Source: Eremomyces bilateralis CBS 781.70 (taxonomy: Eukaryota). Taken from it: a stretch of DNA of 64,000 bases. Positions within the stretch are counted from its first letter, which is position 1. The number at the start of each line of letters is the position of its first letter. A program made the translations under genes and the position numbers. Positions 7,240 to 60,524 of this stretch are shown here, one piece after another. The stretch lies in assembly GCA_010015585.1 (NCBI GenBank), contig ML975174.1; one strand, written 5' to 3'. The notes beneath the pieces were generated by a model. It was not told the DNA's origin. It worked only from the letters and a program-made list of their open reading frames with translations, and searched no databases.

Positions 7240-7264
7240 GATTGAACCAGGAACTATTTAAATT

Positions 7265-33754: not shown

Positions 33755-33914
33755 TTATCTCAGCTTGGGCTCAGACGTTACCCAAGCCATGACCCTGGTT
33801 AAGCTAAACCGTAACCAGATTAAACCCATGTTTAGCGTAAATACTACTCACGTGATTGTAACTGTCTCGTGTAACGTCTGAGAAACTTCAGAGAATTTTC
33901 TGTGGAGTCGTACA
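33755..33914. repeat. Element 1 left terminal structure (outer TIR plus inner inverted block)
   Basis: Outer TTATCTCAG...; CTCAGACGTTAC (33770-33781) is perfectly inverted at 33871-33882 (GTAACGTCTGAG). Confidence 0.85.
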
Positions 33915-34126
33915 TGGTGATAATTGCTAGAAATAATGAGATTGTGAATAACATCATATGGAGAAGTTGAGTGGGCTCCAAAAGTTGATGCGATATAGAT
34001 AAAGGTTTGTTAAACCATCCTATGGCTTTTAAATCTCAAATTTCTAACTGTTAATTCTGTAACTAGCTTTTTAAAACTACTTGTTGCGTCATCTGTCGTA
34101 CAGGTTCACTCTCCAGGTCATCTTCC

Positions 34127-36934
34127 ATGCGACTGAAGCGCCGGCGAGGCCGCGCCCATCGATGTGAAACCGCCCCAAACAAGAATCCTGACTCTGCACA
34201 ATTACCTCCTATCGAGAAAACGATTGAAGAACGGATATTCATGATTGCAACGACACCAGAGAAAGAGTTATGTTCGGTACTGCAAGAGTTGGTTAAGGCC
34301 TGTCTGATACGAAAGAACATCATATACCAGCATGATCTTATCTTCCACGGTTTGCAGCGACTCCTGGGTGGTCGGCTCCCACGTATCAACCAGGTTCGGG
34401 CTCTTCGACGAGTTGTTTTTCGGCATGGGGATACTATTATCTCTGCGAAGACTGGTTTTGGGAAGAGCATCATCTTCCATGCTATCCCAATCTTTATTGG
34501 CAGAATTGTCATCCAGTTGATTCCTTTAAGCAAGCTTGGAGAGGAGCAGAAGAGGTCGATTGAACAGTTACCAGGGGCCAGGCCTTCCCTTGTTACAGCG
34601 GAGACTAAGCGAAGGAATCCGAACCTGTTAAAGGAGATTGCAGCTGGGATATATACCCATATCTTGATGGGTCCTGAGCAAGCAGTTAGCGATGAGTTTC
34701 GTGGTTTGCTGTTAAGCCCCGACGTAAAGAATAGGATTGGTGTGGTTGCAATTGACGAGCTCCATGTTATGGAGCAATGGAAGGAATTCCGGTTGGAATA
34801 TCTCAAAATCAGGGAATTACGACGGTACTTACGTGCTGATACCATCTGGTTTGGTTGTTCTGCCACTTTGAACAAGGCCACAGAACAAGCTGTTATCTAT
34901 TATGGTGGTTTCTACGAAGAGACACACCATGAACTGCCACTCAAGATCATCCGAGTCTCAATCGATCGACCTGATATCTCACTTAACATTTTGCCCATTA
35001 AGAGAGGAAAGAGCAAGGCTTACCAACGGCTATGGTTTCTAGTTGATCATGCATTAGAGCATCCAACTAGTAGGACGGAAGACGACCTCCAGCGAATCCC
35101 GAAAACGATTATCTTTGTAGATGGACTTCAATCGGTAGCGAATATCTCTGCATCCTTAGAGCGGCATCTCTTTGTTCAAGGGTTTGAACCAACCATGGTT
35201 CGGGATGCAATTGGTGTATATACATCGAATACTCCACGATACGATCAGGACTTGCTGTACGATAAGATCAGATCCCCATGCTCTTCTCTTAGAGTAGTTG
35301 TTGCAACTACTGCTCTTGGAATGGGTATGGATATTCCTGATATTATGGTGGTTGCTCAATGGGGACTTCCAATCGGCCATGATCTCGGTGATATTTGGCA
35401 GCGGGTTGGACGGGCTGTTCGAGTAAAGCAGGCAATCAATGGGATGGCTTTTATATTCCTGCCATACTATGCGTTCGACTCAATGGGACAGGATCCTGTT
35501 CAAATGCCTAGTTCGCGTAATAATCAGCCATTGTCTCAGAAGAAAAGGGGAAAGCGGAACACAGTCCGGTTACCGAATACCACCCATTCACCATCGCCAT
35601 TATCGCAAGGCGATGGAGCTGAGTCTGACTTCTCTGAACAGTCTGATAATACCGAAGCAGCCAGTCAAGAGAGCTCGAAATTAACTGTCCCAAAGTCTAA
35701 GAAGAGGGACAAGTCAGATGGTCCACCTCTATGGACTGTTGATGAACTTCAGCATAGGGCAACCCTCCCAATAACGATCCGTTCTCTTGCAAACGCGCCA
35801 TGTAGACGGCAGGTATTCCTTACGGAGTTCAATGAGGACCAATGCGAGCCAGATACTACCCCCATTCGAGCAGACAAGAAGGTCTGTTGTAATGGGAAGG
35901 AGTGTAATCTGGCATTGTTCCAGTTGCCACCAATGCCTGATACTTCCCTTAAGTCTACCAAACCTGGCCGAGAGACTAAGGCAGGTATTGCGCTGCATCT
36001 ATTGGTTATATGGTGTCTTGAACAGGTGGAATCGATCTTCCCACGAGCGCAGCAAATGATTCCAATCCCAGCTGGGGTGATCATTCCTCAAGAAGCGCAA
36101 TGGGCTATTGCTCGTATGTATACTTGTGTGAAGAACTCAACAACGATACCTATACCAGATCGGGAGGCATTGTTACCCCTCTTTGATATCGAAAACTGGG
36201 AATATCGGAACGTCCTCCTTGACGATTTGTTGGTATTCCTTGTCCAGATAGTTCCAGCCGTATACTCGAAGCATGCCGCGATACTAGAGGAACGAAAGTG
36301 CAAGAGGAACCTGAAGGCACTGGCCGGAAAGGTTACAGAGGCTGCTGCTCAAGATTTGGGGAGTAATCCTCAAGACTTGAGTATTATACCTAATCCCACT
36401 CTATCTAAAGAGGAAGAGGTTGCTCAATATGTCCACAGTCGTCAGTCGGCAGATGATAGGGATGGGCTCCGGGTTATCATGCATAACGAGCTACTTGCGC
36501 AGAAGCTTAATGAGTATCGGGAAACATTCAAACCCCGCCATTGGCCCTCGTTTTCATCACTGCCGGAGATATCGGAAGGGTCGCAGGAATTAGGAAGCTC
36601 GTTTGTCGTCGGAGGGGAGTCATCGTTCGTATCGCAATCTAGCGTTAAGTTAGATTCTGGTATAGATAATAAGACTACAATCCCCTCGGATATAAAAGCT
36701 CCTATACCTGTTAACATCCGGTCGCGCAGCCAAACGCCCAAACGAGCTACTCAAGATTCTTCTTCGGGTATGCGCAAGAGAAGTCGGACGCCGCTTAGGG
36801 AAGTATCTGGAAACCATGAGAAAGGACAGATCACTAGACAAGATAGGCCGAATACGCCTAAACGAGCTGGTCTTCGTACTCATGTACAGTTGACGCCAAA
36901 AGGGAGGGATCTATGGGGGAAGAGTGGTAAATAG
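34127..36934 (+). CDS. Transposon-encoded RecQ-like SF2 DExH helicase (935 aa)
   Basis: Motif I AKTGFGKS, Ia LIPL, Ib GPEQ, II AIDELH, III GCSAT, DRPDI, IV KTIIFV, V VATTALGMGMD, VI WQRVGRAVR; RecQ Zn-site-like CRR...CCNGKEC; uninterrupted ORF inside the TIRs. Confidence 0.9.
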   Translation: MRLKRRRGRAHRCETAPNKNPDSAQLPPIEKTIEERIFMIATTPEKELCSVLQELVKACLIRKNIIYQHDLIFHGLQRLLGGRLPRINQVRALRRVVFRHGDTIISAKTGFGKSIIFHAIPIFIGRIVIQLIPLSKLGEEQKRSIEQLPGARPSLVTAETKRRNPNLLKEIAAGIYTHILMGPEQAVSDEFRGLLLSPDVKNRIGVVAIDELHVMEQWKEFRLEYLKIRELRRYLRADTIWFGCSATLNKATEQAVIYYGGFYEETHHELPLKIIRVSIDRPDISLNILPIKRGKSKAYQRLWFLVDHALEHPTSRTEDDLQRIPKTIIFVDGLQSVANISASLERHLFVQGFEPTMVRDAIGVYTSNTPRYDQDLLYDKIRSPCSSLRVVVATTALGMGMDIPDIMVVAQWGLPIGHDLGDIWQRVGRAVRVKQAINGMAFIFLPYYAFDSMGQDPVQMPSSRNNQPLSQKKRGKRNTVRLPNTTHSPSPLSQGDGAESDFSEQSDNTEAASQESSKLTVPKSKKRDKSDGPPLWTVDELQHRATLPITIRSLANAPCRRQVFLTEFNEDQCEPDTTPIRADKKVCCNGKECNLALFQLPPMPDTSLKSTKPGRETKAGIALHLLVIWCLEQVESIFPRAQQMIPIPAGVIIPQEAQWAIARMYTCVKNSTTIPIPDREALLPLFDIENWEYRNVLLDDLLVFLVQIVPAVYSKHAAILEERKCKRNLKALAGKVTEAAAQDLGSNPQDLSIIPNPTLSKEEEVAQYVHSRQSADDRDGLRVIMHNELLAQKLNEYRETFKPRHWPSFSSLPEISEGSQELGSSFVVGGESSFVSQSSVKLDSGIDNKTTIPSDIKAPIPVNIRSRSQTPKRATQDSSSGMRKRSRTPLREVSGNHEKGQITRQDRPNTPKRAGLRTHVQLTPKGRDLWGKSGK

Positions 36935-37381
36935 AAGAACAAAGATTTGGAGGTGTTTTGGTTGGGAGAACTTCGGATAGCCCTTTTCAGACTAGTGTCC
37001 TTTTATTTCCAGATTTGTACCAACTTCAAAGGAAATGAAGTGGGTAGGAACCAATTGAATTATGATTGTATATACATCATCTTGTAGCTCTTAATAAGAG
37101 GATTCCAGCAATGTTATCATCTTTGAAAAACATTAAGGATTGGTAGAGATATTATAGTAAGACACACCTAAACCTGCTAGATACTAGGCTTTTATCTACA
37201 CATTGACCCCATTCCATACTCAATATCCCCCAGGTTGTGCAGCACGAGGCACCCTAGTCTCAACTATGAATTGGTTAATGAGCGACGGGCTCAGTAAACC
37301 AGTTCGAAACTAGGCCTTGGAGACGAATAGTTTCGATATAGAGGGCTTCGAGGGATATAGGTGAAGTGAGCGATAACGTAG

Positions 37382-40051
37382 TCAAAGAATATCATAATCC
37401 TCAACAAGCCCATCTTCACAAGCCTCAGTGTAGGTAATTGCTGGTGAAGTCTCAGAGTTATGAGGATTTAAATCCATCTCTTCGTCAAGGTAAGGATCAG
37501 CCTGGGGGATGATACTAGAGCGGACTGGTATCCGATTGTTGAAGGAATTGACCTTTTGTTCCAAGACCTCAGCACCAATCCGGAAGATATCAGGTGCGTC
37601 CCAACCAACAGCATCGCGAGGTTGGATAGTGAGCAAAGGACTGCGTAGATATAGTTGAAGGGCGCGACTGAAGATATCCCGTTGATCGGCTTTGGTTGTG
37701 TGTCGATCGCTTTGGGTAAACCCAAATGAGTTTTCCCATGCCCCACGAATCTTGGAGAAGACATTACTTAATAATGCGACTCTACCAAAGGTTTTGTCTG
37801 CATTATGTGTTGAATTCTTCAATAACTTCATATCAATCTTGTATGCGCAATTAACGTGTTCAAGGGCTAGGTCAATACCCTTGAACTGGCCTGGTTTGCC
37901 ATGTAAATTCACAAGACTGGATGAGAGTATTGCGTCGCGGAGAATCTTCTCTGAAACGCATTCAGATAATATCCAACGAAGATGGAGCATTTCATCACCA
38001 TACTTGTGCTGTCCAGTTGCGTGGAAGATAACTGCAAGTGGGTCGATTAAACGGTCAATCCAGCCGATGTCGCCATTCTTGACTGCTTTACGCAAAGAAA
38101 GGAAGATGCTGATCAACTGGACAAGTCGGCAGAGACTTCGAAATTCAAGTCCATATTGTGTCGTGTCCCATGCCTCTAGAGAGAATGCCAGTGTGCAGAC
38201 CTCTTTCATTGTAGAGATAAGTTCTTCTGGCTCCAGGTTCTGGATAATTAGATCCAGTTTCGAACTTGGACTGGAATCTTCAAGGAATGCCTTTTGGATA
38301 TGTCCTCGTCTCGTAAGAACATGATACCATAGCATCAAGACACGAGCATAAAATGATTGCTTGAGCAGGGGGTCAAACATGTAGAACTTTGGGGATTCTC
38401 GAGTATATCCTTTTCGATCCCAGTAGATGATATCCGATAGAAGCGTTGCATCTGATGGTAGTGAAGGCTCTTTATCCGACGGTAGTGAAGGCTCCGTATC
38501 AAAATGGATACGGACGATCGTTAGGATGAGATTCATAAGGACATGGAACAGTCCAGATGGACCTAACATCCATCTCCGTCGGTCAAAAGGTAGAATAGCA
38601 TTCTTCTGGGCCTCCTTTAGAGTACGGATATGTTGGGCTGTTTTCTGGTCTCCAAATACCAACCAGAGACGGTTTGTGAAGTCTTCGCTTGGTGGCTGGG
38701 ATTGGAAACCCAACTGTCGGATCCAAATATCTTCATGAACTCCGTAGGTTCCTTGGATTGTTCCTTCATCAAAAGGGGCAGCCCGAAGATGATGGATGTT
38801 TGTTACATTCCCACCCGCATGTAAACGGTTGATCTCTGGATAAGCAGGGACAGCAGACGGCTGTGATTGGAAAACCAAGTCAATACTTGTAGAATGAACG
38901 TGTTGTAGGGCCTCGTAGACTAAGTGAATGTCTATACTCTGCTTTTTCTCATCATACTTTAAGCCATCGGCTTTACAGATGTCTTTAAAAGAGAGAAGTT
39001 GGGAAGGATCGAAACTTGATTGGAATAAACCTTCATCAGGCAAATATGGGTTCTCAACCAACAGGCATGTTGTCAGATTCCGCATAATATGGGTTGAACC
39101 AATTGTCTGCTCGCGCACAGTATCTTTGAAGTTGAAGTTATCATAAACAAGGACTGTCTTTGGCTTTTTGGCCAGCATTGGGAGGCGGTTCTAATTAAAA
39201 GTTAGAAGAAAAGATCTAACTTATGAAATAAACCAACCTACCTTCGCCTTGAGTGCCATACCTGAAACCTCCTCATTAATACTTTGGTATGTCTCAGTGA
39301 GCCCAAGACCAGCAGCTGTATCCACGACCCGCCGCTTTGTCCCACTAGAGATCATATATAACCCCAACTGCTTAGCGTATACATTTGATGTGTTCCGCTT
39401 ACGACTCCGGCATGCTACTGCAGTCATCGTGTACATTTGCCCAATTGTCCCTTTTGAAAGAGTCTCCCTTTGATCTGGTTCTTGACTGCGACAGTTTCGA
39501 AGAACTAGATCTAAACAGCGGTACCATTCCGGTGCCCCAGTCTTGATAACTTTTCGGACATCTTCAAGGTCGATATCCCATTCGTGGGCGGTATCAGGAT
39601 CGAAGGTATCAAAGTATTTGTATTCGGCCAAGCCATCAAGTTCTTTGAGGAGAGGTTGCCAATTATGGCGGCTTGAAGGGTGATGCCCAACAACCTCACG
39701 GATTTCCTCCTCTTCTAAGAGTTCACGGAATATTCCAACCCTTGTAGACCTCCCTAAGGTACCATGGTGCTTATCCGATAGTAACCAGGCGCGGAGGAAT
39801 TCTTTAAACGTGAACCGCTGCTCTCGCCACAGATACAATGTTTCGCGCAATTTATCAAATGGTTGAAGTTTTTTTTTTCCTGCAACACGCCGAATCTGCC
39901 GATATCTAGTAGGGGATCGTCTTAGGGAAGGGCGTTTTGGTCGGGGAGTCGAACCTGAGGGTGAAGACGAGGTAGAGGGCGAGGATGATAAATATGTCTC
40001 ATCTGGCGGTATCGAAGATAACTCGCTGGAGATGAAGGGTGGGGTCGACAT
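37382..40051 (-). CDS. Putative DDE transposase (DUF6589/Academ-like); complement(join(37382..39190,39242..40051)), ~872 aa
   Basis: A 51-nt GT-AG intron at 39241-39191 (GTAGGT donor, CTAAC branch, TAG acceptor) joins the 276-aa and 598-aa ORFs in frame. Conserved motifs VYDNF, FGDQKT, GLFHVLMN, KNGDIG, GQHKYGDEML, LVNLHG and IDLALEHVN. Confidence 0.82.
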
Positions 40052-40228
40052 GGTGAAAGGGAAGATGATACGTTCTTGGACTGTGGAGTGGTTGGATTGG
40101 TCCTGAAACTTGATGAAATGTAGAAGTCAAGGGGTAGAATCAATTTGTGAAAACAGATTAGCGATAAACATTATGTATCAAGCACACTTAGCGATAGGAG
40201 TTCTCTCACCTATTTCATGATATGAAGC

Positions 40229-40412
40229 TGTACACCTCCACACAAATTATGCAGACGTCTCTCAGACGGCAGTTGTACCAACTGCCTTGATGGAATATGA
40301 TTGGTCAATATTTAGTGGCACATGCTAAAGAAGAGGCTGGGCTTTAATGGGTATAGCGGATCCCCATAATGGCCAGGGGGTACCATTGCCGCCTGAGTCC
40401 CAACTGAGATAA
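40229..40412. repeat. Element 1 right terminal structure
   Basis: CTCAGACGGCAG (40261-40272) is inverted at 40386-40397 (TTGCCGCCTGAG, 10/12). 8-bp stem GGCAGTTG-tac-CAACTGCC at 40268-40286. Terminal CTGAGATAA. Confidence 0.8.
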
Positions 40413-40668
40413 TAGCACTGCAGTAGCATACAATATGGTATTAAGGCATCAAGGCGACGAGCTGCATCATCGGCGAACAAGCTCCAAAGTTAAGGGACAT
40501 CCACAGGGAGCTCACAACCAAAGAGGAGGATTAATTCTTCACGCCCACTGTTTCTTGTTCATGCATTGATGCAAACAGTTACCGATAAAGACTTGCTAGA
40601 ACAATTCATAGCCGTGAGCCCATCATTATTGCACCGGAACTTGTAATATAGCCTCCACATCGCCCAGC

Positions 40669-42717
40669 ATGGACATCGTCCAGGCCGTCTCAGGCTACAT
40701 CTCCAAGATGATGTCGTCCACGGACAGCAGCGGATCTGGATCTGCGAAGATGAAGATCCTGTTGCTTGACAGCGAGACTGTAGGTTTGTTGCTCTATACC
40801 CTCGAGCCTCCATGCTCATAGCTAATTCCCGCTTAGGTTGGTATACTCTCGACCGCCACGACACAATCCGCTCTCTTGAACCATGAAGTGTACCTTACAG
40901 AGTACGTGGAGACCAGCCAGGCGCTTGAGATAGGACAATGCTTACGGAAATCATAGTCGCCTCGACAACCAGGCGCGAGAGAAGATGCGCCATTTACGCT
41001 GTCTATGCTTCCTTCGTCCTTCCCCCGAGTCAATACAGCTCCTCATTGATGAACTACGAGAGCCAAAGTACGGAGAGTACAACGTTTGTATGTGCATGTT
41101 ATACACCGGAAGAGAACAAAGGCTAAATTTCCTAGACTTCAGTAACATCATCAAGAAGTCCTCGTTGGAGCGACTGGCCGAAGCGGACGACCATGAGGTG
41201 ATTCGCGCGGTTCAAGAATACTTTGCCGACTACCTTGTCATCAACCCCGACCTGTACTCTCTGGACCTGTGGTACCCTCAAAATCGGATATGGGGAACCA
41301 GTCCCGAGCTATGGAACCCGGACGCCTTGCAACGATCGACCGAAGGGATTCTAGCCGTTCTACTGTCGTTGAAGAAGAAGCCGCTGATACGATACTCGAA
41401 AACGAGTATGCTTGCGAAGAAGCTAGCTACAGAAGTTCGGTATCATATGACACAAGAGGACCAGCTGTTCGACTTCAGGAGACCGGACACCCCTCCAATA
41501 TTGCTGATATTGGATCGAAGGGATGACCCAGTGACTCCATTACTCACTCAATGGACATATCAAGCCATGGTGCACGAGATGCTAGGTATCCGGAACGGCC
41601 GTGTGGATCTAAGCCATGTTCCAGAGGTCCGCCCGGAGTTCAAGGTTAGGCCCCAAACAGGGTATATTCGGATGGATTTCTGACCGCTCGAATAGGAGAT
41701 TGTCCTCTCTCAGGATCAGGACCCCTTCTTCAAGAAGAACATGTTCCTCAACTTCGGAGATCTCGGAGAAAACGCTAAGGGCTACGTCGAGCAATTTGCA
41801 TCGAAAAGTTCGACAAACCTCAAGCTGGAATCCATAGACGACATGAAGCGATTCGTCGAAGATTATCCGGAATTCCGAAAACTCTCGAGCAATGTGACGA
41901 AACATGTCACGTTGGTTGGAGAGCTTAGTCGAAGAGTCGGGGGAGAAAACCTCCTCGATGTTAGCGAACTGGAACAGAGCCTGGCATGCAACGACAACCA
42001 CAACACCGATTTGAAGGTATTTTAGCAGACCTTGGCCTAATATGGCGTTTATTCTAACCTAATTAGACATTACAACGCCTCATTCAAGATCCCGCCGTCC
42101 CCGCATCCAACAAGCTTCGCCTAACCGCGATATACGCCCTCCGCTACTCCAAACACCCATCCAACTCCACCCCGATGCTCCTCGACCTCCTCAGCGTGGC
42201 TGGAAACCTCTCCCGCTTCCGCATTGCCCTCATCTCCAAGCTCCTCACCTACCACAGTTCCCTCGCCCCCGTCCCCGCATCCGCCGGCGTTTCCGGCCTT
42301 CCCGACCTCTTCCAATCTACCAACCTCTTCTCCAGCGCCCGTGAGCGCTTCCGCGGCCTGAAAGGCACCGAGAACGTCTACACCCAGCATTCACCCCGCC
42401 TGGAGAGTACACTGCAGGAGCTGATCCGCGGCCGGCTCAAAGAACAGCTGTATCCCTTCGTCGACGGCGGTGGCTCGACCAAGGACAAACCCCAGGACAT
42501 CGTGGTCTTCATGGTCGGCGGCGTCACGTATGAGGAGGCGAAGATGGTCGCGCAGATCAACGCGAGCTCGCCCGGCGTGCGGATCGTGTTGGGCGGTACC
42601 AGCGTGCACAACAGTGAGAGTTTCCTGGACGAGGTGGAGGATGCGGTGGATTCGTGGCCGGAGGCGGCGAGAGGGGGCACCGCGAATGAAAGGCTGAGGA
42701 GAGAAGTCGGAAGGTGA
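40669..42717 (+). CDS. VPS45: Vps45, Sec1/Munc18-family vacuolar sorting protein (multi-exon)
   Basis: MDIVQAVSGYISKM..MKILLLDSET, HLRCLCFLRPS, VQEYFADY, LILDRRDDPVTPLLTQWTYQAMVHE, NVTKHVTLVGELS, ENVYTQHSP, VFMVGGVTYEE. Several short GT-AG introns (first 40780-40836). Confidence 0.95.
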
Positions 42718-43078
42718 GGCGAGGATGCTGGTGGCGGGGTTTGATGCTTGGGGCCTCGAAATGGTTATGGTGTATGAACGGCATGTTATGGTCTTTAGTG
42801 GCATACCCAATTGACATTGATGAAAAACATAAAAGCTAAATTGCCGTATTTATTGCGTGGTAAGTTGCAAACGTGCTGTCTCGCACGGGATTATCAAGGG
42901 ATTCTTCTGATGTCAAGAGGACTAGGTCGAGTTCCATTCCCCTATGACGCCCATTTGGATGCCCCCAATCCAGACCCGTTTGGAATAAATACAGGTTTCC
43001 TTGGAGATGGTTGAGGATCTTTCAAATCTTGTTCTGAGTGGACGGTAGCAGGTTTGGGGAGAGGTCACAAGGGAACAT

Positions 43079-44870: not shown

Positions 44871-45177
44871 TCTCGAACTCAACAATTCTTTGCCTAATAT
44901 ATGCAATAACGTTCACCAAGAGAGATCAGGCTAGTTGGGACAGAAACAGGGGACATATGAAACTGGTTGCGGTGTTCGTCGTGGAGTATAAACCGAATCG
45001 AATATATTTTTTATTCGACTTGAGACCTTGGCCGGCGGGGAAAGGGAATAAAGGCTCATAACTCGAGACATAAAAGACATAGCTCACGAAAGAAAGGACG
45101 GCAACTCAGATACGGTCTGGTTTATGAAACTTGACTTAATGAGTCTCGCAGTTAGATAAGAAAGGTTTCCCAGGTGA

Positions 45178-48777: not shown

Positions 48778-50352
48778 GGTGAAATTTGCATGTGGAGGTG
48801 ACAGCGTGGTTCTATTGTGACTTGGGAGGAAGGTGGATGTGGGAATTCAAGGTGGTGATGTTCAGGTGCACGGAGCTAGCGACTTGAGCCAGCCACGACA
48901 GCAACGCTGATTGGGCAGGGATGACAGCACTCGCAATTAATGTTGTGTTGAGATCACGTTTTGGAAAGAATAGACTTTGATTCCGATAACTATCTTCAGT
49001 GAGGTTGCTTAGGCGTCCGGAGGAGCCGTCTATTGAGTTTCCAGCCATTCCGGGAGCCTCCCGAGTGATTTCGAAGGACGAGGGACAGGACTGCAGAATA
49101 AACAGCTCCAGGAGGATATATCGTCTCTGGTATATCAAGGGAAGCAAGGTTCCTTTGAATGATGTCCCATCCACGCCAAACCATCATTCCTAGCATATGG
49201 GCGCTGCACGGCAACTCACTGGAAATACCATGAAAGCGATGCTGGTGCTCACGCCTAGTGGTCCATTGCTCTTCTAGTGATGCATCCTATTGACGAATCC
49301 AGCTAAAGCAGATCCGTGATGCATTCTTCGTGTGACATTACCAATGGTCATTACCAGTGGTCTCGGAGCACCTGTACAGCAACCCCCATCAAGATGCACC
49401 ATTTGCAGCTCGGAGGAGGGCGCCTATGTTGCTTCGAGATGCAGTATATGAAGTGCCCGACGCATTTGGCGTTCGTGGTAGATGAAATTGGGGGGCTGGT
49501 CGTGGTCCCCCCAGTTGCCAGCGTCGACCGGTCGCAACGATACCGACACCCCAACGGGCTCCCACCGTACCACACAGCGTATATTGCTTTCCTACGCCGA
49601 ATGATGGCATTCCCAAGCCGGTTTCAGCCATTATCGACGAACATGCCATGTAGAAAATATCAATATATGTGATGGAAATTGAGACTTTCAGGATAACTAT
49701 CGAGAGACTTTTGACCCGAGAAGGAACCCAGGAGTCCGTAGAACATTTTCCGTGATGAATTCGAGGCAGTCGGATTTGATTGAGAGCTGGAATGCGAGCA
49801 TGATGCGAGCATGATGCGAAAGATGAGACGCAAGTCCCAGGGTGCTAGAGGGGACGACTCGCCAAAGACGGCGTGCGAACAGCCCTTCTCAACGCAACAT
49901 CCGCCTTCGCCATCCAAGACGATTCCACAACTGAATAAAGATAATGAGAAGAAGTAAGATCAAATAGGAAAAATTGACTCAGAAGGCAAATAATGTAGCC
50001 GCCAGTGGAGCAGCAAAGATATCAAAGGAACCGGTCAACAGACACCCACATCATTTCTAGTCCAGAAATAGGGATCCTAATTCGTATATATCGCGCCGAA
50101 ACACCATCATTCGCATTTTCTGGTCAGATTCAAGCTGCATGGACACGATGAAGAGCGATGGAGTGATTCTGGTGCTGGACGGACGTTGCGTGAAGGCTCG
50201 CCTGATGTGGACTAGCGCATCCGCTCCGCTTATCTAATCGACTTCGCCTTGGCACCGCACAACTCAAACTTCACCAAATTCTACCACCACTCCGCCCATA
50301 CATTTCGTCAATCACACAACAAGACCCCTTTGCAGTTTCAGAAGGAGCAAAG

Positions 50353-51419
50353 ATGGTGAGTCGATCCATATTCTTTGGCGTTTCCTACATCGAGGACATC
50401 TCTACCTGGATATGTGAGATGGAGATGGTCCCGGATGGTTGTCGAGGAGCCGGCGTCGATTCGAGATGTTCGCGAAATCGCAACAATTGCTGACGGAGTT
50501 TTCTAGGGTCGCGTTATTCGAAATCAGAGGAAGGGGTAAGAGAAGACACATCCCATTGATCGAATCACCAGCTCATCACCATCCTAGCCGCGGCTCGATC
50601 TTCAAGGCCAACACCCGCTTGAACAAGGCCCCGGCCAAGTTCCGATCCCTCGACTACTCCGAGCGACATGGCTACGTTCGCGGCATCGTCAAGGACATCA
50701 TCCACGATGCCGGCCGCGGCGCCCCGCTCGCCAAGGTCACCTTCCGCGACCCGTACAAATACCGGCTCATCACGGAGACCTTCATCGCCAACGAGGGCAT
50801 GTACACCGGGCAGTTCGTCTACGCCGGGAAGTACGCCAGCCTGACGGTCGGCAACGTGCTGCCGCTCGGCTCCGTCCCTGAGGGAACCGTGGTGACGAAC
50901 GTCGAGGAGCAGCCGGGTGACCGTGGCGCGCTGGGGAGGACCTCCGGCAACTACGTCACTGTCATCGGCCATAACCCCGATGAGGGCATCACCCGTGTCA
51001 AGCTCCCGTCCGGAGCGAAGAAGGTTGTCAAGAGCAGCGTTCGTGGCATGGTGGGCATCGTCGCTGGTGGTGGACGAACGGACAAGCCGCTGCTGAGTAC
51101 GACATGAAATTTCGGGATCGAAGAGCATGACTGACAGCGATACAGAGGCGTCTCGCGCGAAGCATAAGTTTGCCGTCAAGCGCAACTCATGGCCCAAGAC
51201 TCGTGGTGTGGCAATGAACCCCGTCGACCATGTACGTATCTCGCATCATCCCTCGGGAATCCCACTAACCCGCGTCCACAGCCTCACGGTGGTGGTAACC
51301 ATCAACATATCGGTAAGGCCTCGACCATCTCCCGGTACGCCACACAAGGTCAAAAGGCCGGTCTCATCGCCGCGCGGAGAACGGGTCTGCTGCGGGGAAC
51401 CCAGAAGACGAAGGATTAG
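50353..51419 (+). CDS. RPL2: 60S ribosomal protein uL2 (L2/L8), multi-exon, ATG-only first exon
   Basis: ATG|gtgagt intron, then [81 protein letters not shown]. Confidence 0.97.
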
Positions 51420-52638
51420 AGGGGATGAACACTGCGGCGGTCGGCACGGCAATCGGAGTTTATGCATATCATTCATGGCTGGATGTCATTGCGGCCTGGG
51501 TGTTGGTCTCTGGCTATCACAAAAATCAAGGGACATTAGCGATTTGATCTCTGGACTGCTGCTTCTGAGTGACTGTGATTCGTCGGGTGTTGTGGAGCGG
51601 ACCGCGTGTATTCTACAGTATGCTTCGGTTGGGATTGTGCTCCAGTTTTTCTGATTCAAATATACTGGAGATCGAAGTCTCAGTCACGTTGGGATATGGC
51701 CACAGTCTGGTGATACTCCACACCAGCAAGCGACGAGTTCCCATCCAACGACTAAATTTATCCATCGATAGCCCATACTTTTGATACCAACCTGAAGGGG
51801 CGCGGGGCTACGTCTATGAAACTTCTCCGCCCGACCAATCCCCAGCAGTGGAGCACCGCAGCACGAAACAACGTTGGTTAAAAGGCCTCACAAAAAGCGC
51901 CCCCTCCACTTCAGCGTGTAACATCCAGGCCATCGACCTGCATCGTTATTCGAGGCCCGATCATCGTTGTCCGGCGCTAAGCGTCGCAAATCTGCGCAGT
52001 GGAGATGGCATTTTAGTCTCCCGACAGGTATTTGCCGCTGCATGTGGAACATGACGATCGACAACGCTCTTCCCCTGGTGAACCGCCGACCAGCGGTCTC
52101 TAACCTGCCCAAACCGTGTGTTTCATGCGCCCTTCCCCATTGATTTCCTCATTGCAATATCTAGGGCTTGTCGTCTCCCTCGATTCTCGTTTCCAACAGA
52201 TTAATCGTTCCCATCCGACTGAATACATCAATCGTCTCGCATCCATCCCGTATGCGTTCTCATATTCTTTTCATTCGCTTATATTAAACCCAACCATCGC
52301 TTTGTGACCGGCGGCGAACCCGTCCGTTATCGATAAAACTTATTTCCTACATTTATTGCACAACACCACGGCCGGCACCAGAGAGCCCAGAGTCCAGACC
52401 TGGCCCCCTTGTTGACGCACACCCCACCCATCGCCATCAATCTGATCAACATCCCTGAGGAAGCCTTTGTTTGGACGTTGGAGGTCTTGGGAGAAAGGCA
52501 ACAATCAATAATCAATATCCTTGAAAGGTCCTTTCTCCCCCTTATTTTAATTCCGGCCGATCTTCTCCCCTCTCCTCTTCTACCTTCCATCATTTCCATC
52601 GCTGAGACCTGCGAATATACTCGGACGCCATACACACG

Positions 52639-54061
52639 ATGATGAACATGAAAAAGCTCGATCGATTGAAGCAGTGGGCGGGCGAGCGCATGGGCGGGGA
52701 GGCGAAAACTAACACGACGGAAGATTTCAAGGCGTTGGAGGTGGAGATGACGATGAGACATGATGGTACGCCCGTCCTACGAGCTGGTGGAATCGTGGAC
52801 ATGGAAGCTGACTTGATGGGATCACATAGGCATGGAAAGTCTCCACAAGTCGATGACCACATACATGAAGTCGTTGTCGAAGCGACAGGAAGGGGACGAC
52901 CGGGAGAAGGCATTGTCGGTCGGCAATCTTGGGAGTACCATGGTCAATCATGGACAGGACTTCCAGACCGATTCGGAGTTTGGGAACTGCCTCATAAGTA
53001 TGATCATCGATGTCCTGGGATACAAACGAAGGCTAATGAGGGATATAGCTCTCGGTCGAGCGAACGAGATCATCGCGCGGAAGCAGGAGGGGTACGTCAC
53101 TGCGGCGACATCAAGCTGGCTTGAGTCGCTTGAACGCTCGCTCGCACAGATGAAAGAATATCAGGTACGCATCCATCCACGGAGCATGAAGGACCAACGC
53201 TGACACTCCCAGGCCGCCCGAAAGAAGCTCGAACAGCGCCGACTCGCGTACGACGCGTCCCTCGCTAAGGTGCAGAAAGCCAAGCGCGAGGACTTTCGCG
53301 TGGAAGAGGAGTTGCGGTCGCAGAAGGCGAAGTACGAGGAGTCGAGCGACGATGTGCTGCGGCGGATGCAGGAGATTCAGGAGTCAGAGGTGGAGAGCGC
53401 GGCGGACCTGACGGGGATGTTGGACGCACAGCTGGCGTACTACGATAATTGCCGGGAGGTGCTGTTGCAGGTGAAGCGGGAGTGGCCGACCTCGTACGTA
53501 CCCGGAGAGTGATGCAGTCGAAGTTCGAACCTTACTGACGACATGTTAGCCAACGACATGACTCCCACCATAGCCGCCACGGACCCCGCTCCCGATCCAG
53601 CACCGCCGACCGCTTCAGCATGGCCGAGCACCCCTCCACCAACCTCCGCCCCATCACCACCCGCTTCGCCCCCCGCACCCAATCCGCCTCCCCTAAACAC
53701 GAGATCCCCACTNNNNNNNNNNNNNNNNNNNNNNNNNNNNNNNNNNNNNNNNNNNNNNNNNNNNNNNNNNNNNNNNNNNNNNNNCACCCGCATCCCCACC
53801 GACCCGGCCGGCCTCCGCTGCGCCCTCCGCCCGGCGCCCCGCATGATGACCGCCAGCGGCAACATCTTCCACGACCCGAACGACGACTACGCCGCGTATC
53901 AGAGCCACTCGCCGACGAACACGCACGCGAGCACGACGTCGACGGCCAGCGAGGTGGACGTCGGGTTCGTGAAGAAGGCGCCGCCCCCGCCGCCGCCGAG
54001 TCGGGTGAAGAAGGCGGCGCCGCCGCCGGTGCCGGGGAAAAAGTTTGTGGGGTTGGGGTGA
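52639..54061 (+). CDS. BAR-domain protein (fungal endophilin-like) with Pro-rich tail; multi-exon, spans an assembly gap
   Basis: RLKQWAGERMG..T..EDFKALEVEM, SEFGNCL, WLESLERSLAQMKEYQ-AARKKLEQRRLAYD, EEELRSQKAKYEES; tail KKAPPPPPPSR..PPPVP. Confidence 0.85.
53713..53784. other. Assembly gap (72 N)
   Basis: Run of n characters inside the C-rich last exon of the BAR gene. Confidence 1.
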
Positions 54062-54508
54062 TGGGGGAATAGATAGGTAGGTTGGGTTGAGCGTGGTGTT
54101 GGGAGAAGGCCGTCTAATAATTCGGGAGAGTTTTGAGTCTGGAGTCTCCTCCCTTGGTGCAGATGGTCGTTGGTAAAAAGCGCTGGTCGTGTATACTATT
54201 ATTTTTACGAGGAGGGGTTCAGCGAGGCCGTAGGTCCGTTTCGTGCAGTCTAGTCGACAATGCAAAAGCGTGTTCCGCCAAATGAAGTCAGGATAGAGAA
54301 TCGGAACGTTGTGAACACGTCGATGTTTGTGAGGAAAGTGAAACTGGCAGACTAGGAGCTTGAATCTGAGTTGAGTATGACCTTATCACGTCTTACATGT
54401 CCCTCGTATTGCCATCCTTAGTGTCTAGTGATCTCTCAGCTCTAGCCTCTAGGCCACTAGTCGGCAGTACAATGGACTGTGGCGTCTGAATTGTGTGAGG
54501 CTGTGAAG

Positions 54509-54623
54509 TTACCTCAGCAAGCTCAGGCTATTTGTGGTCGTGCCAAGGCACCGGAGTGGGACTATACCTAATCGGTAAGTCACATGCACTCCTCGAACAA
54601 ATAGCCTGAGGATTCTGTCAATG
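54509..54623. repeat. Element 2 left bipartite TIR
   Basis: Outer 25-bp block and inner 25-bp block, 65 bp apart; CTCAGGCTATTT and AAATAGCCTGAG are inverted within the end. Confidence 0.93.
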
Positions 54624-54770
54624 GGTTTTGGGTGTGTGCGGAGAGCTTTCATACCAAATGGAAGACCATCTTTAACTCCATTTTCATCCACAACCACACT
54701 ATGCTCCGTCAATTAAATATAACCATTCGATTCCCCTGCTTTTTCTCCATAATTGATTGAATTTTGGGTC

Positions 54771-57498
54771 ATGTCGGCCCGAAACCAGCATCGTCAGAGC
54801 GCGCGGTTGAACTCGCCCACTTTGCTACCTGCTCCAAGTTCTCAGCATATTGCTGCGTCAAACACATCTAATGCACCTCGTCAGAAAGCAAGAGGTTCTC
54901 AAAGACGCAGTAAGGCGCAGAGAGTAAACGAGATATGCCAATTCATGCGGAAAAAAAACATTACACTACGAGAATTTATCCATGTCTACGCGACGACTCA
55001 AGGGTCTGATGGTTATGGGGAGCGCCCTGCCACGCGTGCCAAACGACTCGCCGAGGCCGTCTACGGTCAGGCAGAGGTCTTAGATGCACTGCGAGAACAT
55101 CCCGCGTCTGGTGCGGCAGGAATTGTCACTATAAAGGACCTGAGGAAGGAAATGAAGGAACTGGAAGAAGCCGGAGATATGTTTAGTGCCTACCAAGTCG
55201 ACCGTGTCCAAGAGAAGACTTCACCTGCCGGCGTAGGGAGGGAGAAACAGTCAGAGGGTCAGAAGGTCGAGGACTACGAGCGCATACTGGGCAACATGCA
55301 GTTTGGGCAGATGTACGAGCAAGTTAAAACTCGTGCTCCTCTTCTATGTGGATTGCTCAATGGCCTTATGGCGCCCAAGACAGAGAGAAAAGATCGACCG
55401 CCACGGGATCCTGTCAAGTTCAACCACAGGATTGCGATAATCACGTCGATTCTCTGCTATTCTCGGGCATCGGAAGGGAGTAACAAGTTTCCCCGCGTAT
55501 TTGGCGCCTTTCTGCACTCAAATGGCGTGAAACGACGTATCCTCGATCTTCTTCACCAATTTGGGGTTTGTGAAGGCTACAAGGGAGTCCACAGGCATCT
55601 CGAAACTGTGGCAGAACAAGCAAAGGCATCCTCACCGCCTCTCAGTATAGACGTCCACTGATTGCAATTAGGGAACGGTTCGTCGATATGGTCAGCAACT
55701 GGATGCCTGTGTTGTATATGACAATTTCGACTATCGAGAAGGTATTAAGCACCAGCTTATTTCAAATCACGCAGAAATGCGCTCTGTGACAACGGGAAAG
55801 GTTTTCAGAGGCTCTGATATCCCCTCTGGTGGTCTAAAGCAGTCAATGCTACACCGCGAGGTTCCACTTACAATAGAGGATCTTTTATATTCTCCTGGTG
55901 CAGCAGTATATGACGAGACTGCCGCAAAGATTGATACCTACTTTATAGCGGAGGCAATTCGATCAGCATATCCAATATCGGTCGAATCTATCTTCTCTAC
56001 GTCCGACACACCTTACCCCGCTATGCCAGCAGTCGAGTTACTCGAGATTCGAAAGACAGATAGCAAGACGCTCGGTCCGATTCTCTTTAACGAAGGTACT
56101 CTAGATGGTTCCTACGAGGTTATAGAGAGCATCTACAAGTACCAATTCCGGCTAGATAATAAAGAATTCGACAACCGTCTGTTCTTGGCATTTGGCGATC
56201 AAAAAACCTCTTCACTTATCCGATCTATGCAGGCTGAGCAAGTAGACGCGTCTATGGCGTATGATAGAAAAGACTGGCTGATAGGAGTCGCTGCTCTCTT
56301 TCACCTGCGTATGAATTTTCTATGGCTTATGCAAAAGACACATTACGGAAACATGGAGCAACAGGACGCTTCAACTCTCTATCACAACATCAACTTCTGG
56401 GGACGAAAGAATATTCCAGCAGACCGTGCAGCATTTCAGGTTCTGGAAGAGCTGGTACTTCACAGTTTCGACGCTCGGGTTGTTGGACTACTCTATACTC
56501 GCCTCGAGCAGTGCGGCATCGATACCTCGGATCAAGATGAGGTTGACAAGGCAATTCGGAACATGAATACTAGAGGCTTTATGGACCTAGTGGAGGATAT
56601 TCGCAGATCCGCATTTGAGCCGCAAGCCTGGCGACCATCTAAGGAGCAGTATACCAACGACACAGTCGATGAGGAGTTCCTCAGTCACGCTCGATATCTT
56701 CAACAAATGGTTGTATACAAGACCTTGAAGTACGGTATCAAAAACGGAGATATAGGACTCATTGATCGAGTTATTGGTGTCTGTTGCTTTTACTTCGAGG
56801 GGACTGGACAATCAAACTACGCATTCGAAATGCTCTATCTAAAGCGGCTCACTAGCACCAAAGCTTGTGACAAGGAGCTTCGGCGCGCAATACTCTCGAA
56901 TAGCCTCGTTAATCCGCACGGCCGTCGGGACACCTGGCAAGAAGTCGATCGTAGCCTTGAATATCTAAACCTAGAGCTGAAAAGAGAGCTTTGGGCCCGT
57001 CGAACGTCGACTTTCGGATTAGATGCCCTGTTCAAGACTACCTCATTGACGGCAGAATATACTGTTTGTCTACGCAGGGCAGTTGAGGATGCATTCGCCC
57101 GGAAGGACAACTCCACACATTCCGTGCCCTCCCCGAAAGATGATATTCATACATTGGCCTTTGAGCTAGCATACGACTCGATTAAGCTCTATGACGGCGG
57201 CAGGAAGGCAAGACATCAAGCGCCAGACATACATACGGTCGGGCTCGAAAGAGTAGCAACTCAAAAATTGGAAGTGTTCAATGCAAAAGTTATAAGAGAT
57301 AAAGATCGGATAGTTGTACCACCTTATGAGAGGAGAGGAGCTACGGCTGATCTAGATCCCAATAGCGACACGATGGCGATATTGGTATGTGCATGCTCAT
57401 ATAGTTTCTGGTCTTGTGCTAACAGACGTCGCCAGCCCTTGGCAGACAGAGATATAACCCATGAATGGGGTTTACCTTCGGATGTCGAGTTAGACTAA
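54771..57498 (+). CDS. Putative DDE transposase (DUF6589/Academ-like); exon 1 from 54771, intron ~55626-55671, probable second intron 57385-57435
   Basis: Exon 1 (GAFLHSNGVKRRILDLLHQFGVCEGY) is homologous to element 1 exon 1 (GLYMISSGTKRRVVDTAAGLGLTETY). After the TAG acceptor at 55671 the frame reads VVYDNFD, FGDQKT, ALFHLRMN, KNGDIG, GQSNYAFEML, LVNPHG, VDRSLEYLN. Confidence 0.82.
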
Positions 57499-57573
57499 CC
57501 TATCTATAATACCCACTCGCTGTAGTCGTAGCGGCTATTATTCCTTTTCTTACTGCGAGGACTTCGCCTTGCG

Positions 57574-60054
57574 TTAAATCGAGTCTAAAACGCCGAGTAC
57601 GACCCGTTTCGTCGCTACTCCCTTCCCTCGGCTCAATGCGGGACGTTTCGAGGCCTGATTACTATTAATTATTCCTGGCACCTCATTCTCACCATCTTCG
57701 AGAACACCTGATATAGTAGAAGAATAGTCTACGTCTGTAGATATCATCGACCTACCTATAGATGTGAATGACGAGTTCACTGATACTATAGGCATTGATA
57801 GAGTAGGTAGATAAGAAGAACTCGAAGCTGGTACCTCTCTTGCCTGGGCAATGATTCGCTCTAGCGAGGAAGCGTACTCTTCTCGTTCATGCGCGAATAA
57901 TACTCTTCGTTCCTGATCAGGAGTTATCGGAGTCTCTGCTTCGATAGACAATCTTCTCTTCCGACTTCGTTGTTGAGATACTTGCCGTTCGGCGGTGGGA
58001 TGAGCTTGTCTTTCGAATGGTGCTCTTCGTATTAGAACTTGAGCTGCAGCTGTGGTTCCTGGCGTGCAGCCTCCGGGCCAGTTCCTCACGACATAGGACT
58101 TGATTTTATTAAACTCTTCGAACAGCTCATGGGAATGATCTTTCATCCAAGCCGATTTCATAAACTTCTCCAACTCAGCAGCCGAGCGGATGTTCGTATA
58201 CTCTCTGGATATTGATATCCACTCTTCCTTCTGCGCGAGTAACCGTACTGAGAGCTCTGGCTTTACCATCCGATGTGCCGAATTAACAACGTTGTCTCCC
58301 CAGAGGGTCAGGCGGTCATAAAATGCGCGGGATGCCGTTCCAGCCTGGGGCTTGCGAAGACTAGCAGTGGTATCCCATGGGAAAGGCACCGCCCGCGTCA
58401 GATCAGGGTTACAGACGTTACAGCACTCGTGCGGTTGAGGAGCCGGTAACCTAGATGCAGGGTCCGATAGACTCTCTTGTAGCCAATCCATTAGGATTCG
58501 GCGTAGGCATGCGGATCGATTAACAAGATTGAATAGCGCCGGACAGTCATTATATAGGTCTGTTCGGCGTTCTCTCCCCGTTTTGCGTCGGTGCTGCCCT
58601 CCTGGTATATCATACTTAATAGCGTCTACGGCAACATCCGATTCATCATCTGGGATATCACCGCCCACCCCTGGATCGGTGGAGTACGACTGAGCTAACT
58701 GGCTCGTGTCGGAAGGCTGCCTTAAACACGACAGCATCTGAGTTCTGGATTGCAGCGCCGGTCTTGTCGATGAGATCCTGTCACCTATCGCCCAACTTTC
58801 TACCAAGAATATAGCCTCTCCTTTAATGCCAGTCATCCTAGCTGCACGGCCAAAGCGTTGGATAAGGACGCATAAGAGTCGTTCTAGAGGGAAGCCATAC
58901 TGGACAACTCGTATGACATCCGAGAGATCTACCCCCGTTCCCAATGATTCTGTGGCCACCATGATTCGGATCTTAGAGTCCGGTTTAGAAAACTGGTCGT
59001 ATATAGCATTCTTGTCGTTCGGAGTAGTATGTGAATGGTAGACCTGGATAATCTGCTTGCAGTCGTGGGCGTCCACGGACCCAGCTAACAGTTTCTGTAG
59101 CCAATCTCGCAGACATTCCGCACATTTTTGGATATCCCGTCGGGAGTCTATAAAGATTACAGTCTTCGGAATTCGCTCCGGCGTTGGCGAGCCGTTTGTG
59201 ATGGCGTCCTGCAGAACAAAGAAGAGGCTTATGAATCTCTTCGTTGTCCGTGGTTGGATCATCTCGACGATTAACTTAATCTCTGGTCTATCGACGGATG
59301 ATCGGAAGAACTCGCAGCTGGCCTGGAATCCTGTCATTTTTGTCGCAGTGTCTAACGTCGTCCGGTCCAGGGTGGCAGAGCAGCCAAACCAAGGGACACC
59401 TCCCCCTAGCCTTCGGCGTAGAAGAGAGAGTTGTGCATACTGTGGACGGATACCACTTCCCCAGAGGGCCACTAAATGGAGCTCATCTATAGCCACGATA
59501 CAGACACGCTTCTTAAAAGTCGGGCTGCTTGCTATCGATCGAAACCAACCGGCGGCGATCTCTGGGCCCATGATAAGATGAGTATACACTCCCATTTCAA
59601 TCTCTTGGGCTAATTCTTGAGTCTTGTCCGTCCTGCCATTGATAAACACGGATCTCGCGCCCGGAAGCCTTTGGATTTTGATACACTGCTCCTGTCCAAT
59701 TCGATCCAAAGGGATGATAATGAGGCCGATGCCATCGCGGCAAAACAACGGCGCTGCCTGGAATATGACACTTTTGCCAAAAGATGTCTTGGCTGCAAGA
59801 ATAAGGTCCTCCTTCTTGAATACTAAATGCCATATAGCATCTACCTGCTTCTGACGAGGCTCGAATGGGTAGAGATGGCAGTCCAGGCCTGCCCTGATGA
59901 TGCCCTTCTGCACTTCCTCGGGCGCGTCTCTTGCAATTTCGACTAACCGCTGTATAGCCAGCATACTAGTGGTGCTATAGGCATCGTGGACGAGATCTCT
60001 GGCGATGTCCATGGTCTCTCGTCGCCGTTTTCGAACGCTCGCCTTGCTTCGCAT
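57574..60054 (-). CDS. Transposon-encoded RecQ-like SF2 DExH helicase (~826 aa from first ATG)
   Basis: AKTSFGKS, IIPL, GPE, AIDELH, GCSAT, DRPEI, KTVIFI, VATESLGTGVD, IQRFGRAAR, CLRR...ECCNVC. The motifs are collinear with the element 1 helicase. Confidence 0.9.
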   Translation of the reverse strand: MRSKASVRKRRRETMDIARDLVHDAYSTTSMLAIQRLVEIARDAPEEVQKGIIRAGLDCHLYPFEPRQKQVDAIWHLVFKKEDLILAAKTSFGKSVIFQAAPLFCRDGIGLIIIPLDRIGQEQCIKIQRLPGARSVFINGRTDKTQELAQEIEMGVYTHLIMGPEIAAGWFRSIASSPTFKKRVCIVAIDELHLVALWGSGIRPQYAQLSLLRRRLGGGVPWFGCSATLDRTTLDTATKMTGFQASCEFFRSSVDRPEIKLIVEMIQPRTTKRFISLFFVLQDAITNGSPTPERIPKTVIFIDSRRDIQKCAECLRDWLQKLLAGSVDAHDCKQIIQVYHSHTTPNDKNAIYDQFSKPDSKIRIMVATESLGTGVDLSDVIRVVQYGFPLERLLCVLIQRFGRAARMTGIKGEAIFLVESWAIGDRISSTRPALQSRTQMLSCLRQPSDTSQLAQSYSTDPGVGGDIPDDESDVAVDAIKYDIPGGQHRRKTGRERRTDLYNDCPALFNLVNRSACLRRILMDWLQESLSDPASRLPAPQPHECCNVCNPDLTRAVPFPWDTTASLRKPQAGTASRAFYDRLTLWGDNVVNSAHRMVKPELSVRLLAQKEEWISISREYTNIRSAAELEKFMKSAWMKDHSHELFEEFNKIKSYVVRNWPGGCTPGTTAAAQVLIRRAPFERQAHPTAERQVSQQRSRKRRLSIEAETPITPDQERRVLFAHEREEYASSLERIIAQAREVPASSSSYLPTLSMPIVSVNSSFTSIGRSMISTDVDYSSTISGVLEDGENEVPGIINSNQASKRPALSRGKGVATKRVVLGVLDSI

Positions 60055-60416
60055 GGGAAATATGGACACAAAATGTGTTCAATAATAGATATTTGTGTGA
60101 ATACCGACCGAGAAAGGCGTTATATGACATCCAATGGGTGTTTTCCAGGCTCATTCGACCGTAAGCTCCGGAACGATGGCTGGATGGTGATTTCGGTGTG
60201 GTCTAGTTCATCACATATTAGCGTTTTTCACCCGACACAAGCATGGACATGTAAAAAAAAATCAATTACGAGATAGAGCATACTTTAATACACAATCGAT
60301 CAGATTTTGGAGTACATACGACGTGTTTTGATGTGGTTATTAATGGATCGTGATTTTGTCAAATCCGCAGAGATACATACAAACCACATACAAAATTTAT
60401 GCAGAGCAGTGCGCGT

Positions 60417-60524
60417 CATTGACAGAATCCTCAGGCTATTTACCAGAGGAGTAGTTAAAGTAACGTGACCTTTTACAAAAAAGGTTAGACTCCCCTGAGA
60501 AATAGCCTGAGCTTGCTGAGGTAA
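60417..60524. repeat. Element 2 right bipartite TIR
   Basis: Inner block 60417-60441 and outer block 60500-60524, 58 bp apart. Confidence 0.93.

Follow-up and report, generated by a model that had tools for sequence, protein, structure and literature searches.

We report that a 64,000-nucleotide stretch of contig ML975174.1 from the fungus Eremomyces bilateralis CBS 781.70 (assembly GCA_010015585.1; hereafter, the window) contains two transposable elements, element 1 (6658 bp) and element 2 (6016 bp), each with a gene for a RecQ-like helicase and a gene for a protein of the family DUF6589. Taken together, our results suggest that these are probably intact, autonomous cut-and-paste transposons of one old family that combines a DUF6589 transposase with a RecQ helicase and that likely belongs to AcademH, a helicase-encoding lineage of Academ transposons. 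The helicase is a conserved core gene of such elements: it has co-diverged with the transposase and is not passive cargo.

Both elements are bounded by short direct repeats and by a common terminal motif. We found that TAGCACTG flanks element 1 on both sides, that CTGTGAAG flanks element 2 on both sides, and that all four ends read TTAYCTCAG. This 9-mer occurs five times in the window, where 0.72 occurrences would be expected (none of 100 shuffles reached five); four of the sites are the element ends, and the fifth is a solitary TTATCTCAG at 31352-31360. The termini of element 2 form a perfect 25-bp inverted repeat beginning TTACCTCAG, and those of element 1 read TTATCTCAG, with 20 of the 30 outermost bases agreeing between its two ends. 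Because each element has its own 8-bp duplication, we conclude that they are separate insertions, and because termini, layout, intron position and both proteins are common to the two, that they are one family. Similar ends recur in other lineages, whose transposases are just 35-45% identical to that of element 2: the terminal 9-mer (TTAYCTYAG across lineages) is followed after 3-4 bases by CTCAG(A/G)C. Among 19 end pairs tried from related metagenome loci (L numbers; the collection is described below), four are flanked by matching duplications, of 8 bp in L020 and of 9 bp in L037, L057 and L072. In the other 15 the flanks mismatch or are absent on one side; the mismatches probably reflect chimeric assembly of a multi-copy repeat, or misplaced ends (L048, L077).

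Each element carries two convergent genes that read inward, a helicase frame and a two-part DUF6589 frame (Table 1). The large exons match Pfam DUF6589 with E values of 2.5e-65 and 1.1e-67, and both window helicases match Pfam DEAD and Helicase_C. By pairwise BLASTP, the helicases of elements 1 and 2 are 30% identical (623 columns, E 8e-73), the DUF6589 exons 31% identical (581 columns, E 5e-81) and the N-terminal exons 21% identical (270 columns, E 1e-9). After removal of both coding introns, the element 2 transposase has 876 amino acids. Its first intron has a GC donor, as opposed to GT in element 1, and a contig of the public run X1, whose contigs are 90-100% like element 2 and whose nature as RNA is a guess, lacks exactly these 46 bases. 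The joints in the X1 contigs fit removal of three element 2 introns, the two in the transposase and the one in the helicase leader; if the run is DNA, they would mean intron-less copies. Contigs from this run also exit the element exactly at 54509 into differing flanks, and one ends exactly at 60524, which fits several insertion sites in that organism. These results bear out the observations in the preliminary description of this DNA, which had proposed two separate insertions of deeply diverged elements with a shared 9-mer at their ends, an 8-bp target duplication, convergent genes and a phase-0 intron after ..AK; the motifs it listed (AIDELH, WFGCSATL, RIPKT, FGDQKT and KNGDIG) are all present in both copies.

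DUF6589 is listed in Pfam as a domain of unknown function, public records name its members hypothetical proteins, and in our literature search the one paper found to mention DUF6589 makes no link to transposons. The family is large, comprising 1390 clusters at 50% identity (E <= 0.001), or 632 at E <= 1e-10. Sequence comparison did not connect it to known transposases: a 50-sequence profile gave no matches to PDB sequences, and no Pfam transposase family was matched at E <= 10 (5 proteins) or at E <= 0.01 (18 proteins). We therefore turn to fold as the basis of our reading. An AlphaFold model built from the 50-sequence alignment has a mean predicted local distance difference test score (pLDDT) of 87.9 and a predicted template modelling score (pTM) of 0.87. 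When this model was compared with 48,161 representative chains (VIA-align), it matched P-element transposase 6p5a (Z 10.1, 282 aligned residues), retroviral integrase catalytic cores (Z 9-9.8, 130-141 residues), Hermes 8edg (Z 8.4, 274 residues), Tn5 (Z 8.1, 185 residues) and RAG1 (Z 5.8, about 300 residues). Foldseek placed Hermes and the P element at the top of weak rows, with no match at E <= 0.001, and the clear rows come from VIA-align only.

The structural matches span model residues 1-470, and the predicted protein would therefore have an RNase H core that is interrupted by inserted helices, about 200 residues in all, an arrangement that in the model resembles those of P, hAT and RAG1. 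Across 50 DUF6589 sequences D426, E430 and N433 are invariant and D176 is nearly so; D17 is nearly invariant across 10. D17 lies on the first strand, D176 belongs to the GDQKT motif and comes after the fourth strand, and E430 lies in the helix D426-xxx-E430-xx-N433. From these features we read DUF6589 as a predicted DDE transposase with an RNase H-like fold and infer D17, D176 and E430 as its candidate catalytic triad. It weighs against this triad that it is read from conservation and fold rather than from a metal-bound structure. A large family known as hypothetical proteins can now be interpreted in concrete terms, as DDE transposases.

All 37 PDB sequence matches of the helicase at E <= 0.001 are to the RecQ family (best E 2.5e-18), comprising RecQ1, WRN, RecQ, RECQ5, RECQ4 and BLM. 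The helicase model has a pLDDT of 74.2, with disordered linkers. It matches WRN with Z 31.6 (root-mean-square deviation, rmsd, 3.1; 385 residues aligned), bacterial RecQ with Z 30.4, and BLM with Z 33.0 but an rmsd of 12.5; alignment to WRN 530-941 and RecQ 8-408 continues through residue ~560 and includes the zinc-binding part. Among the 26 family members aligned, the Walker A, DExH and QRxGR motifs are invariant throughout, as are four cysteines. Together, these results identify the element helicase as a RecQ-family protein with a superfamily 2 (SF2) core, a DExH box and a zinc-binding subdomain.

We next consider whether the helicase belongs to the element or merely travels with it. Metagenome contigs were scanned with a 10-sequence DUF6589 alignment, the 50-sequence alignment being too diverse for a locus scan; of 223 confirmed stretches, the best 80 were taken as loci. 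A helicase relative was found in 37 of these 80, and all 37 have it on the strand opposite to the transposase and downstream of it. Its presence varies with the length of flank available on a contig: the helicase was found in 35 of 42 loci with at least 1 kb downstream and in 23 of 26 with at least 3 kb. The misses among the latter are L077, L048 and L029. In the lineage of L077 the helicase lies about 6.7 kb off, beyond the end of the L077 contig. The other two weigh against the helicase being a constant partner: L048 has 10 kb of downstream DNA without a helicase, and in L029 the 4 kb downstream contain no helicase of the RecQ-like kind. On the L029 contig, a superfamily 1 (SF1)-type helicase frame (AAA_11, UvrD-like) occupies 5629-7581 on the same strand as DUF6589, and could be a host neighbour or a swapped helicase; a search of this contig for the terminal 9-mer found none.

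The two genes also share a history. Of 39 rows with both genes, 27 remained once short-coverage or stop-rich rows had been dropped, and pruning of 6 near-duplicates left 21 rows for tree building. The helicase and transposase trees have 13 of 18 splits in common, and the five discordant splits are poorly supported. Their Robinson-Foulds distance is 10, whereas random relabellings average 35.6 and never fall below 30 (0 of 10,000 were as good), and patristic distances in the two trees correlate with a Mantel r of 0.92 (0 of 5000 permutations). The ratio of nonsynonymous to synonymous substitution rates (dN/dS) could be read in 10 of 12 pairs, the other 2 being saturated, and ranges over 0.09-0.17 in the transposase and 0.14-0.28 in the helicase; both genes are under purifying selection. 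Congruence alone would indicate long retention rather than function, because linked genes co-diverge anyway. Congruence together with selection and intact ATPase motifs, however, leads us to conclude that the helicase is not cargo, and places it among the element's core genes. The preliminary description had argued that the helicase is functionally coupled to transposition, and had named incongruent trees and frequent loss of the helicase as observations that would speak against this. In our data the trees are congruent, selection is purifying on both genes, and frequent loss was not seen in contigs with sufficient flank. Thus, the part of that claim that denies passive cargo stands on retention, congruence, selection and invariant ATPase motifs; a physical or mechanistic coupling is something we infer.

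The same description had guessed at structured ends, and we found hairpin-forming repeats beside most of them. The second CTCAG of each end, 3-4 bases past the terminal 9-mer, is the outer edge of a fold-back inverted repeat. In single-strand folding, the hairpin is the minimum-energy fold in 7 of 8 ends (z -2.5 to -6.9). In 31 of 48 distinct ends the stem begins at bases 12-17 and comprises 12 or more matches, compared with 0 of 960 shuffles. Beyond the conserved CTCAGAC the stem varies between lineages, and even between the two ends of one element, yet it pairs: stem positions 8-14 each show 3-4 types of Watson-Crick pair. As a control, each 5' arm was given the best site in an unrelated end. 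Positions 8-14 pair at 6 or more of 7 in 25 of 42 ends with their own partner, versus 112 of 1616 cross-paired controls. Since own-partner pairing is far above the controls, the complementarity of the stem itself appears to be conserved across ends. A literature search for a RecQ-bearing transposon with subterminal hairpins, which was not exhaustive, returned nothing relevant, and covarying subterminal hairpins may be new to this kind of element.

Table 1. Positions in the window of the two elements, their genes, and the repeats at their ends.
Feature	Position	Strand	Remarks
Element 1, target-site duplication, left	33747..33754		TAGCACTG
Element 1, whole	33755..40412		
Element 1, left subterminal inverted repeat/hairpin	33770..33882		arms 33770-33783 and 33869-33882, start CTCAG; z -2.74
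Element 1, RecQ-like helicase gene	34127..36934	+	start is the first ATG of open frame 34067-36934
Element 1, transposase, large exon	37382..39190	-	DUF6589 core, including stop
Element 1, transposase intron	39191..39241	-	51 nt, GT..AG, phase 0 after ..AK; read from sequence alone
Element 1, transposase, first exon	39242..40051	-	N-terminal region; matches no Pfam family
Element 1, right subterminal inverted repeat, weak	40261..40397		10 matches, 115-nt spacer; z +1.11, -0.99
Element 1, target-site duplication, right	40413..40420		TAGCACTG
Element 2, target-site duplication, left	54501..54508		CTGTGAAG
Element 2, whole	54509..60524		
Element 2, left subterminal hairpin-forming repeat	54521..54611		z -4.84, 0/200 shuffles
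Element 2, transposase exon 1	54771..55625	+	
Element 2, transposase intron 1	55626..55671	+	46 nt, GC..AG, phase 0 after ..AK; joint 55623>55670, with a possible shift of at most 3
Element 2, transposase exon 2	55672..57384	+	DUF6589 core; candidate D17, D176, E430 of P0006
Element 2, transposase intron 2	57385..57435	+	51 nt, GT..AG, in frame, stop-free
Element 2, transposase exon 3	57436..57498	+	with stop
Element 2, RecQ-like helicase gene	57574..60054	-	826 aa
Element 2, helicase leader intron	60203..60319	-	117 nt, GT..AG
Element 2, right subterminal hairpin-forming repeat	60429..60512		z -5.78, 0/200 shuffles
Element 2, target-site duplication, right	60525..60532		CTGTGAAG

The neighbouring DNA in the window is ordinary gene-rich chromosome (Sec1, ribosomal protein L2, Snf2, Dcp1 and others). 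About 9 kb upstream of element 1, at 24400-33750, holds no frame longer than 170 amino acids and has a lower G+C content (0.46-0.50). Named homologues of the element proteins come from several ascomycete genera. Proteins of Stachybotrys, Fusarium, Dactylonectria, Metarhizium and Eremomyces, which belong to different classes, are 81-90% identical to the element 2 transposase and 72-82% identical to its helicase; the helicase is also 66-69% identical to proteins of Leptodontidium and Cadophora, and the synonymous divergence (dS) of element 2 from metagenome copies is just 0.6-0.7. This pattern looks like horizontal transfer of element 2 between distant ascomycetes. Several contigs of 6.0-6.7 kb, among them L001, L004 and L066, are about one element long and are bounded within a few bases of the 9-mer, as assemblers give for multi-copy repeats, which hints at a high copy number in some soil fungi. 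A sister lineage (L012, L037, L057, L070, L072 and probably L077) has elements of 11-12 kb with 6.6-6.8 kb between transposase and helicase. Within the extra DNA are a unit of about 2 kb that occurs in duplicate and has small frames without a clear family, and clustered copies of the terminal 9-mer, some at 24-bp spacing; most of these copies have 6-18 stops in each gene's matched stretch, and L012 has none. A named Metarhizium record of 970 amino acids (P0023) joins a Piwi domain and a partial DUF6589 domain in one predicted protein, probably because an element was inserted in or near an Argonaute gene or because gene models were merged.

How the two proteins might act can be outlined conditionally. 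The transposase would cut at the terminal 9-mer and join the ends to target DNA cleaved with a stagger of 8-9 bp, and the helicase would be needed for the element to propagate and spread. We tentatively favor remodelling of the hairpins at the ends as the role of the helicase, a preference that could well prove wrong: the enzyme would open or extrude the hairpin or cruciform beside the 9-mer, making or clearing the transposase's substrate. Structure-dependent transposition in the strict sense, with the helicase remodelling the covarying hairpin 3-4 bases inside the cleavage site and the DDE transposase acting on the remodelled end, is decidedly doubtful. If true, it would be a mode of end recognition undescribed for eukaryotic cut-and-paste transposons, and would account for the uptake of RecQ helicases by several unrelated DDE lineages. 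The covarying hairpins are a candidate substrate of the helicase that is specific and can be mutated, and having two intact, diverged elements within a single gene-rich region offers a good point of departure for testing it. Some observations weigh against hairpin remodelling. At the right end of element 1 the repeat is weak and the hairpin is not the predicted fold, 17 of the 48 ends have fewer than 12 stem matches, and an inverted repeat in double-stranded DNA may simply mark a pair of sites bound by protein, or may form a structure in an RNA leader.

The last of these points can be developed into a full explanation, possible if somewhat doubtful, in which the repeats serve as pairs of sites bound by the transposase, or as promoter or leader structures of the two inward-reading genes, and the helicase acts elsewhere, for example by helping to capture the target or to set the stagger of 8-10 bp. 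Consistent with this, the arms always start with the conserved CTCAG(A/G)C, much as a binding motif would, and a spliced-looking X1 contig reaches 60524, such that the right hairpin may sit in the helicase leader; moreover, a passage in PMC10045372 ties the AcademH helicase to duplication length. What this explanation does not predict is pairing beyond the motif, at positions 8-14, with 3-4 Watson-Crick types at each and at a frequency far above controls, which points to selection on complementarity itself. The helicase could, on a different explanation, act in repair of the donor site: after excision, synthesis-dependent strand annealing from a sister copy would restore the element and raise its copy number. 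The Drosophila host helicase BLM acts in this way after P-element excision. The helicase is of the RecQ family, with BLM and WRN its top structural matches, the top structural match of the transposase is that of the P element, and a gain in copy number would account for selection on the helicase; donor-site repair is nonetheless unlikely, as it leaves the conserved, covarying hairpins unexplained and the host should already own RecQ helicases. That the helicase should be mere passive cargo, or should act as a decoy against host silencing, is highly improbable. RecQ helicases do act in fungal RNA silencing, quelling employing QDE-3 according to a passage in PMC5751038, but a decoy would have no use for an intact ATPase. 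Cargo, in turn, is at odds with a position and strand that stay the same in all 37 loci, a tree that mirrors that of the transposase, and the keeping of all ATPase motifs at a dN/dS of 0.14-0.28 across lineages only 30% identical.

The elements are likely, rather than established, members of AcademH, a lineage that we know through passages citing its description (Kojima 2020, Mob DNA 11:15). Those passages (PMC10045372, PMC10799480, PMC12210899) present AcademH as the Academ lineage that encodes a helicase with DEAD and Helicase_C domains, occurring in animals as well as, at low copy number, in Ascomycota, Basidiomycota and Mucoromycota, and AcademX as encoding an XPG nuclease and making duplications of 3-4 bp. 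The window elements share with AcademH, as it is portrayed there, the combination of a DDE-type transposase and an SF2 helicase (DEAD, Helicase_C) in one transposon with terminal inverted repeats. They also share its range over animals and fungi, DUF6589 clusters being commonest in Mollusca, Basidiomycota, Mucoromycota and Arthropoda, and abundance in rust fungi fits as well. In the part of the Academ RNase H profile (PMC5751038 supplement, 465 positions) that covers positions 424-465, a W, a D-xxx-E with invariant D and E, and a K have counterparts in DUF6589 at W422, D426, E430 and K437. Two observations weigh against membership. The profile stretches 16-40, 92-117 and 143-168 show no obvious likeness to DUF6589 (about 130 of the 465 positions were compared), and target duplications are 8 bp in both window elements and in L020, compared with the 9-10 bp given for AcademH in a passage of PMC10045372. 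The sister lineage (L037, L057, L072) does duplicate 9 bp. An 8-bp duplication weakens AcademH membership but leaves it possible, because duplication length varies by lineage in other superfamilies (hAT5, hAT6 and hAT7 in the passages available). The supplement of PMC10799480 mentions none of the terms DUF6589, PF20231 and Academ, and among the longer proteins no fusions of transposase with helicase or with XPG were found, which is weak evidence. An undescribed DDE superfamily outside Academ, which recruited a RecQ-like helicase independently as Kolobok did, is unlikely. It would suit the absence of Pfam transposase matches at E <= 10 and of PDB sequence matches to the 50-sequence profile, the 8-bp duplications, the early and middle stretches of the Academ profile that are unlike DUF6589, and the literature mention of DUF6589 with no link to transposons. 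It is countered by the D-xxx-E...K shared with the part of the Academ profile compared, by the 9-bp duplications of the sister lineage and by the animal and fungal range and rust fungi abundance, all of which fit AcademH as cited; in addition, a family of 1390 clusters is unlikely to have been missed by a 2020 survey of helicase-bearing fungal transposons.

Other known systems resemble these elements in part. P-element 6p5a and Hermes 8edg match the DUF6589 model best in structure, with the RNase H core and the insertion region both covered, whereas no sequence match to the Pfam transposase or dimerisation domains of P and hAT appeared at E <= 10 (5 proteins) or at E <= 0.01 (18 proteins). Target duplications in the P and hAT superfamilies are about 8 bp, and, to our knowledge, neither encodes a helicase. 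The C/DxxH signature of the hAT/P/MuDR/Kolobok/Dada group is absent, all 10 aligned DUF6589 sequences having A, G or S three residues ahead of the conserved His (H211), and we rejected placement in that group. In the comparison with Zisupton/KDZ, the 8-bp duplication agrees and no KDZ Pfam family was matched. Helitrons have an HUH nuclease and a Pif1-type helicase, and lack terminal inverted repeats and target duplications. Like the window elements, they are eukaryotic DNA transposons with a helicase of their own and a hairpin near an end; the DDE fold, RecQ-type helicase and 8-9 bp duplications of the elements described here differ from the Helitron pattern and rule out that assignment.

The closest parallel outside Academ is Kolobok. 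According to passages in PMC9587614, KolobokH of fungi and Kolobok-1_CCri of a red alga are cut-and-paste DDE transposons that encode a RecQ helicase, and in Kolobok-1_CCri, as in the window elements, the helicase lies on the complementary strand. In KolobokH, by contrast, the same source puts the helicase in one protein with the transposase domain and downstream of it, whereas here it is a separate gene on the opposite strand; its elements duplicate TTAA, as opposed to TAGCACTG and CTGTGAAG here; and Kolobok transposases carry, in the passages available, the C/DxxH signature that is absent from DUF6589. The 8-bp duplications and the separate opposite-strand helicase gene rule out membership in KolobokH. 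The pairing of a helicase with a transposase in fungal DNA transposons is thus a known kind, in print as AcademH and KolobokH, to which the present analysis adds an interpretation of DUF6589 as the transposase on the basis of its fold, a quantitative case for the helicase as a core gene, and the covarying hairpins.

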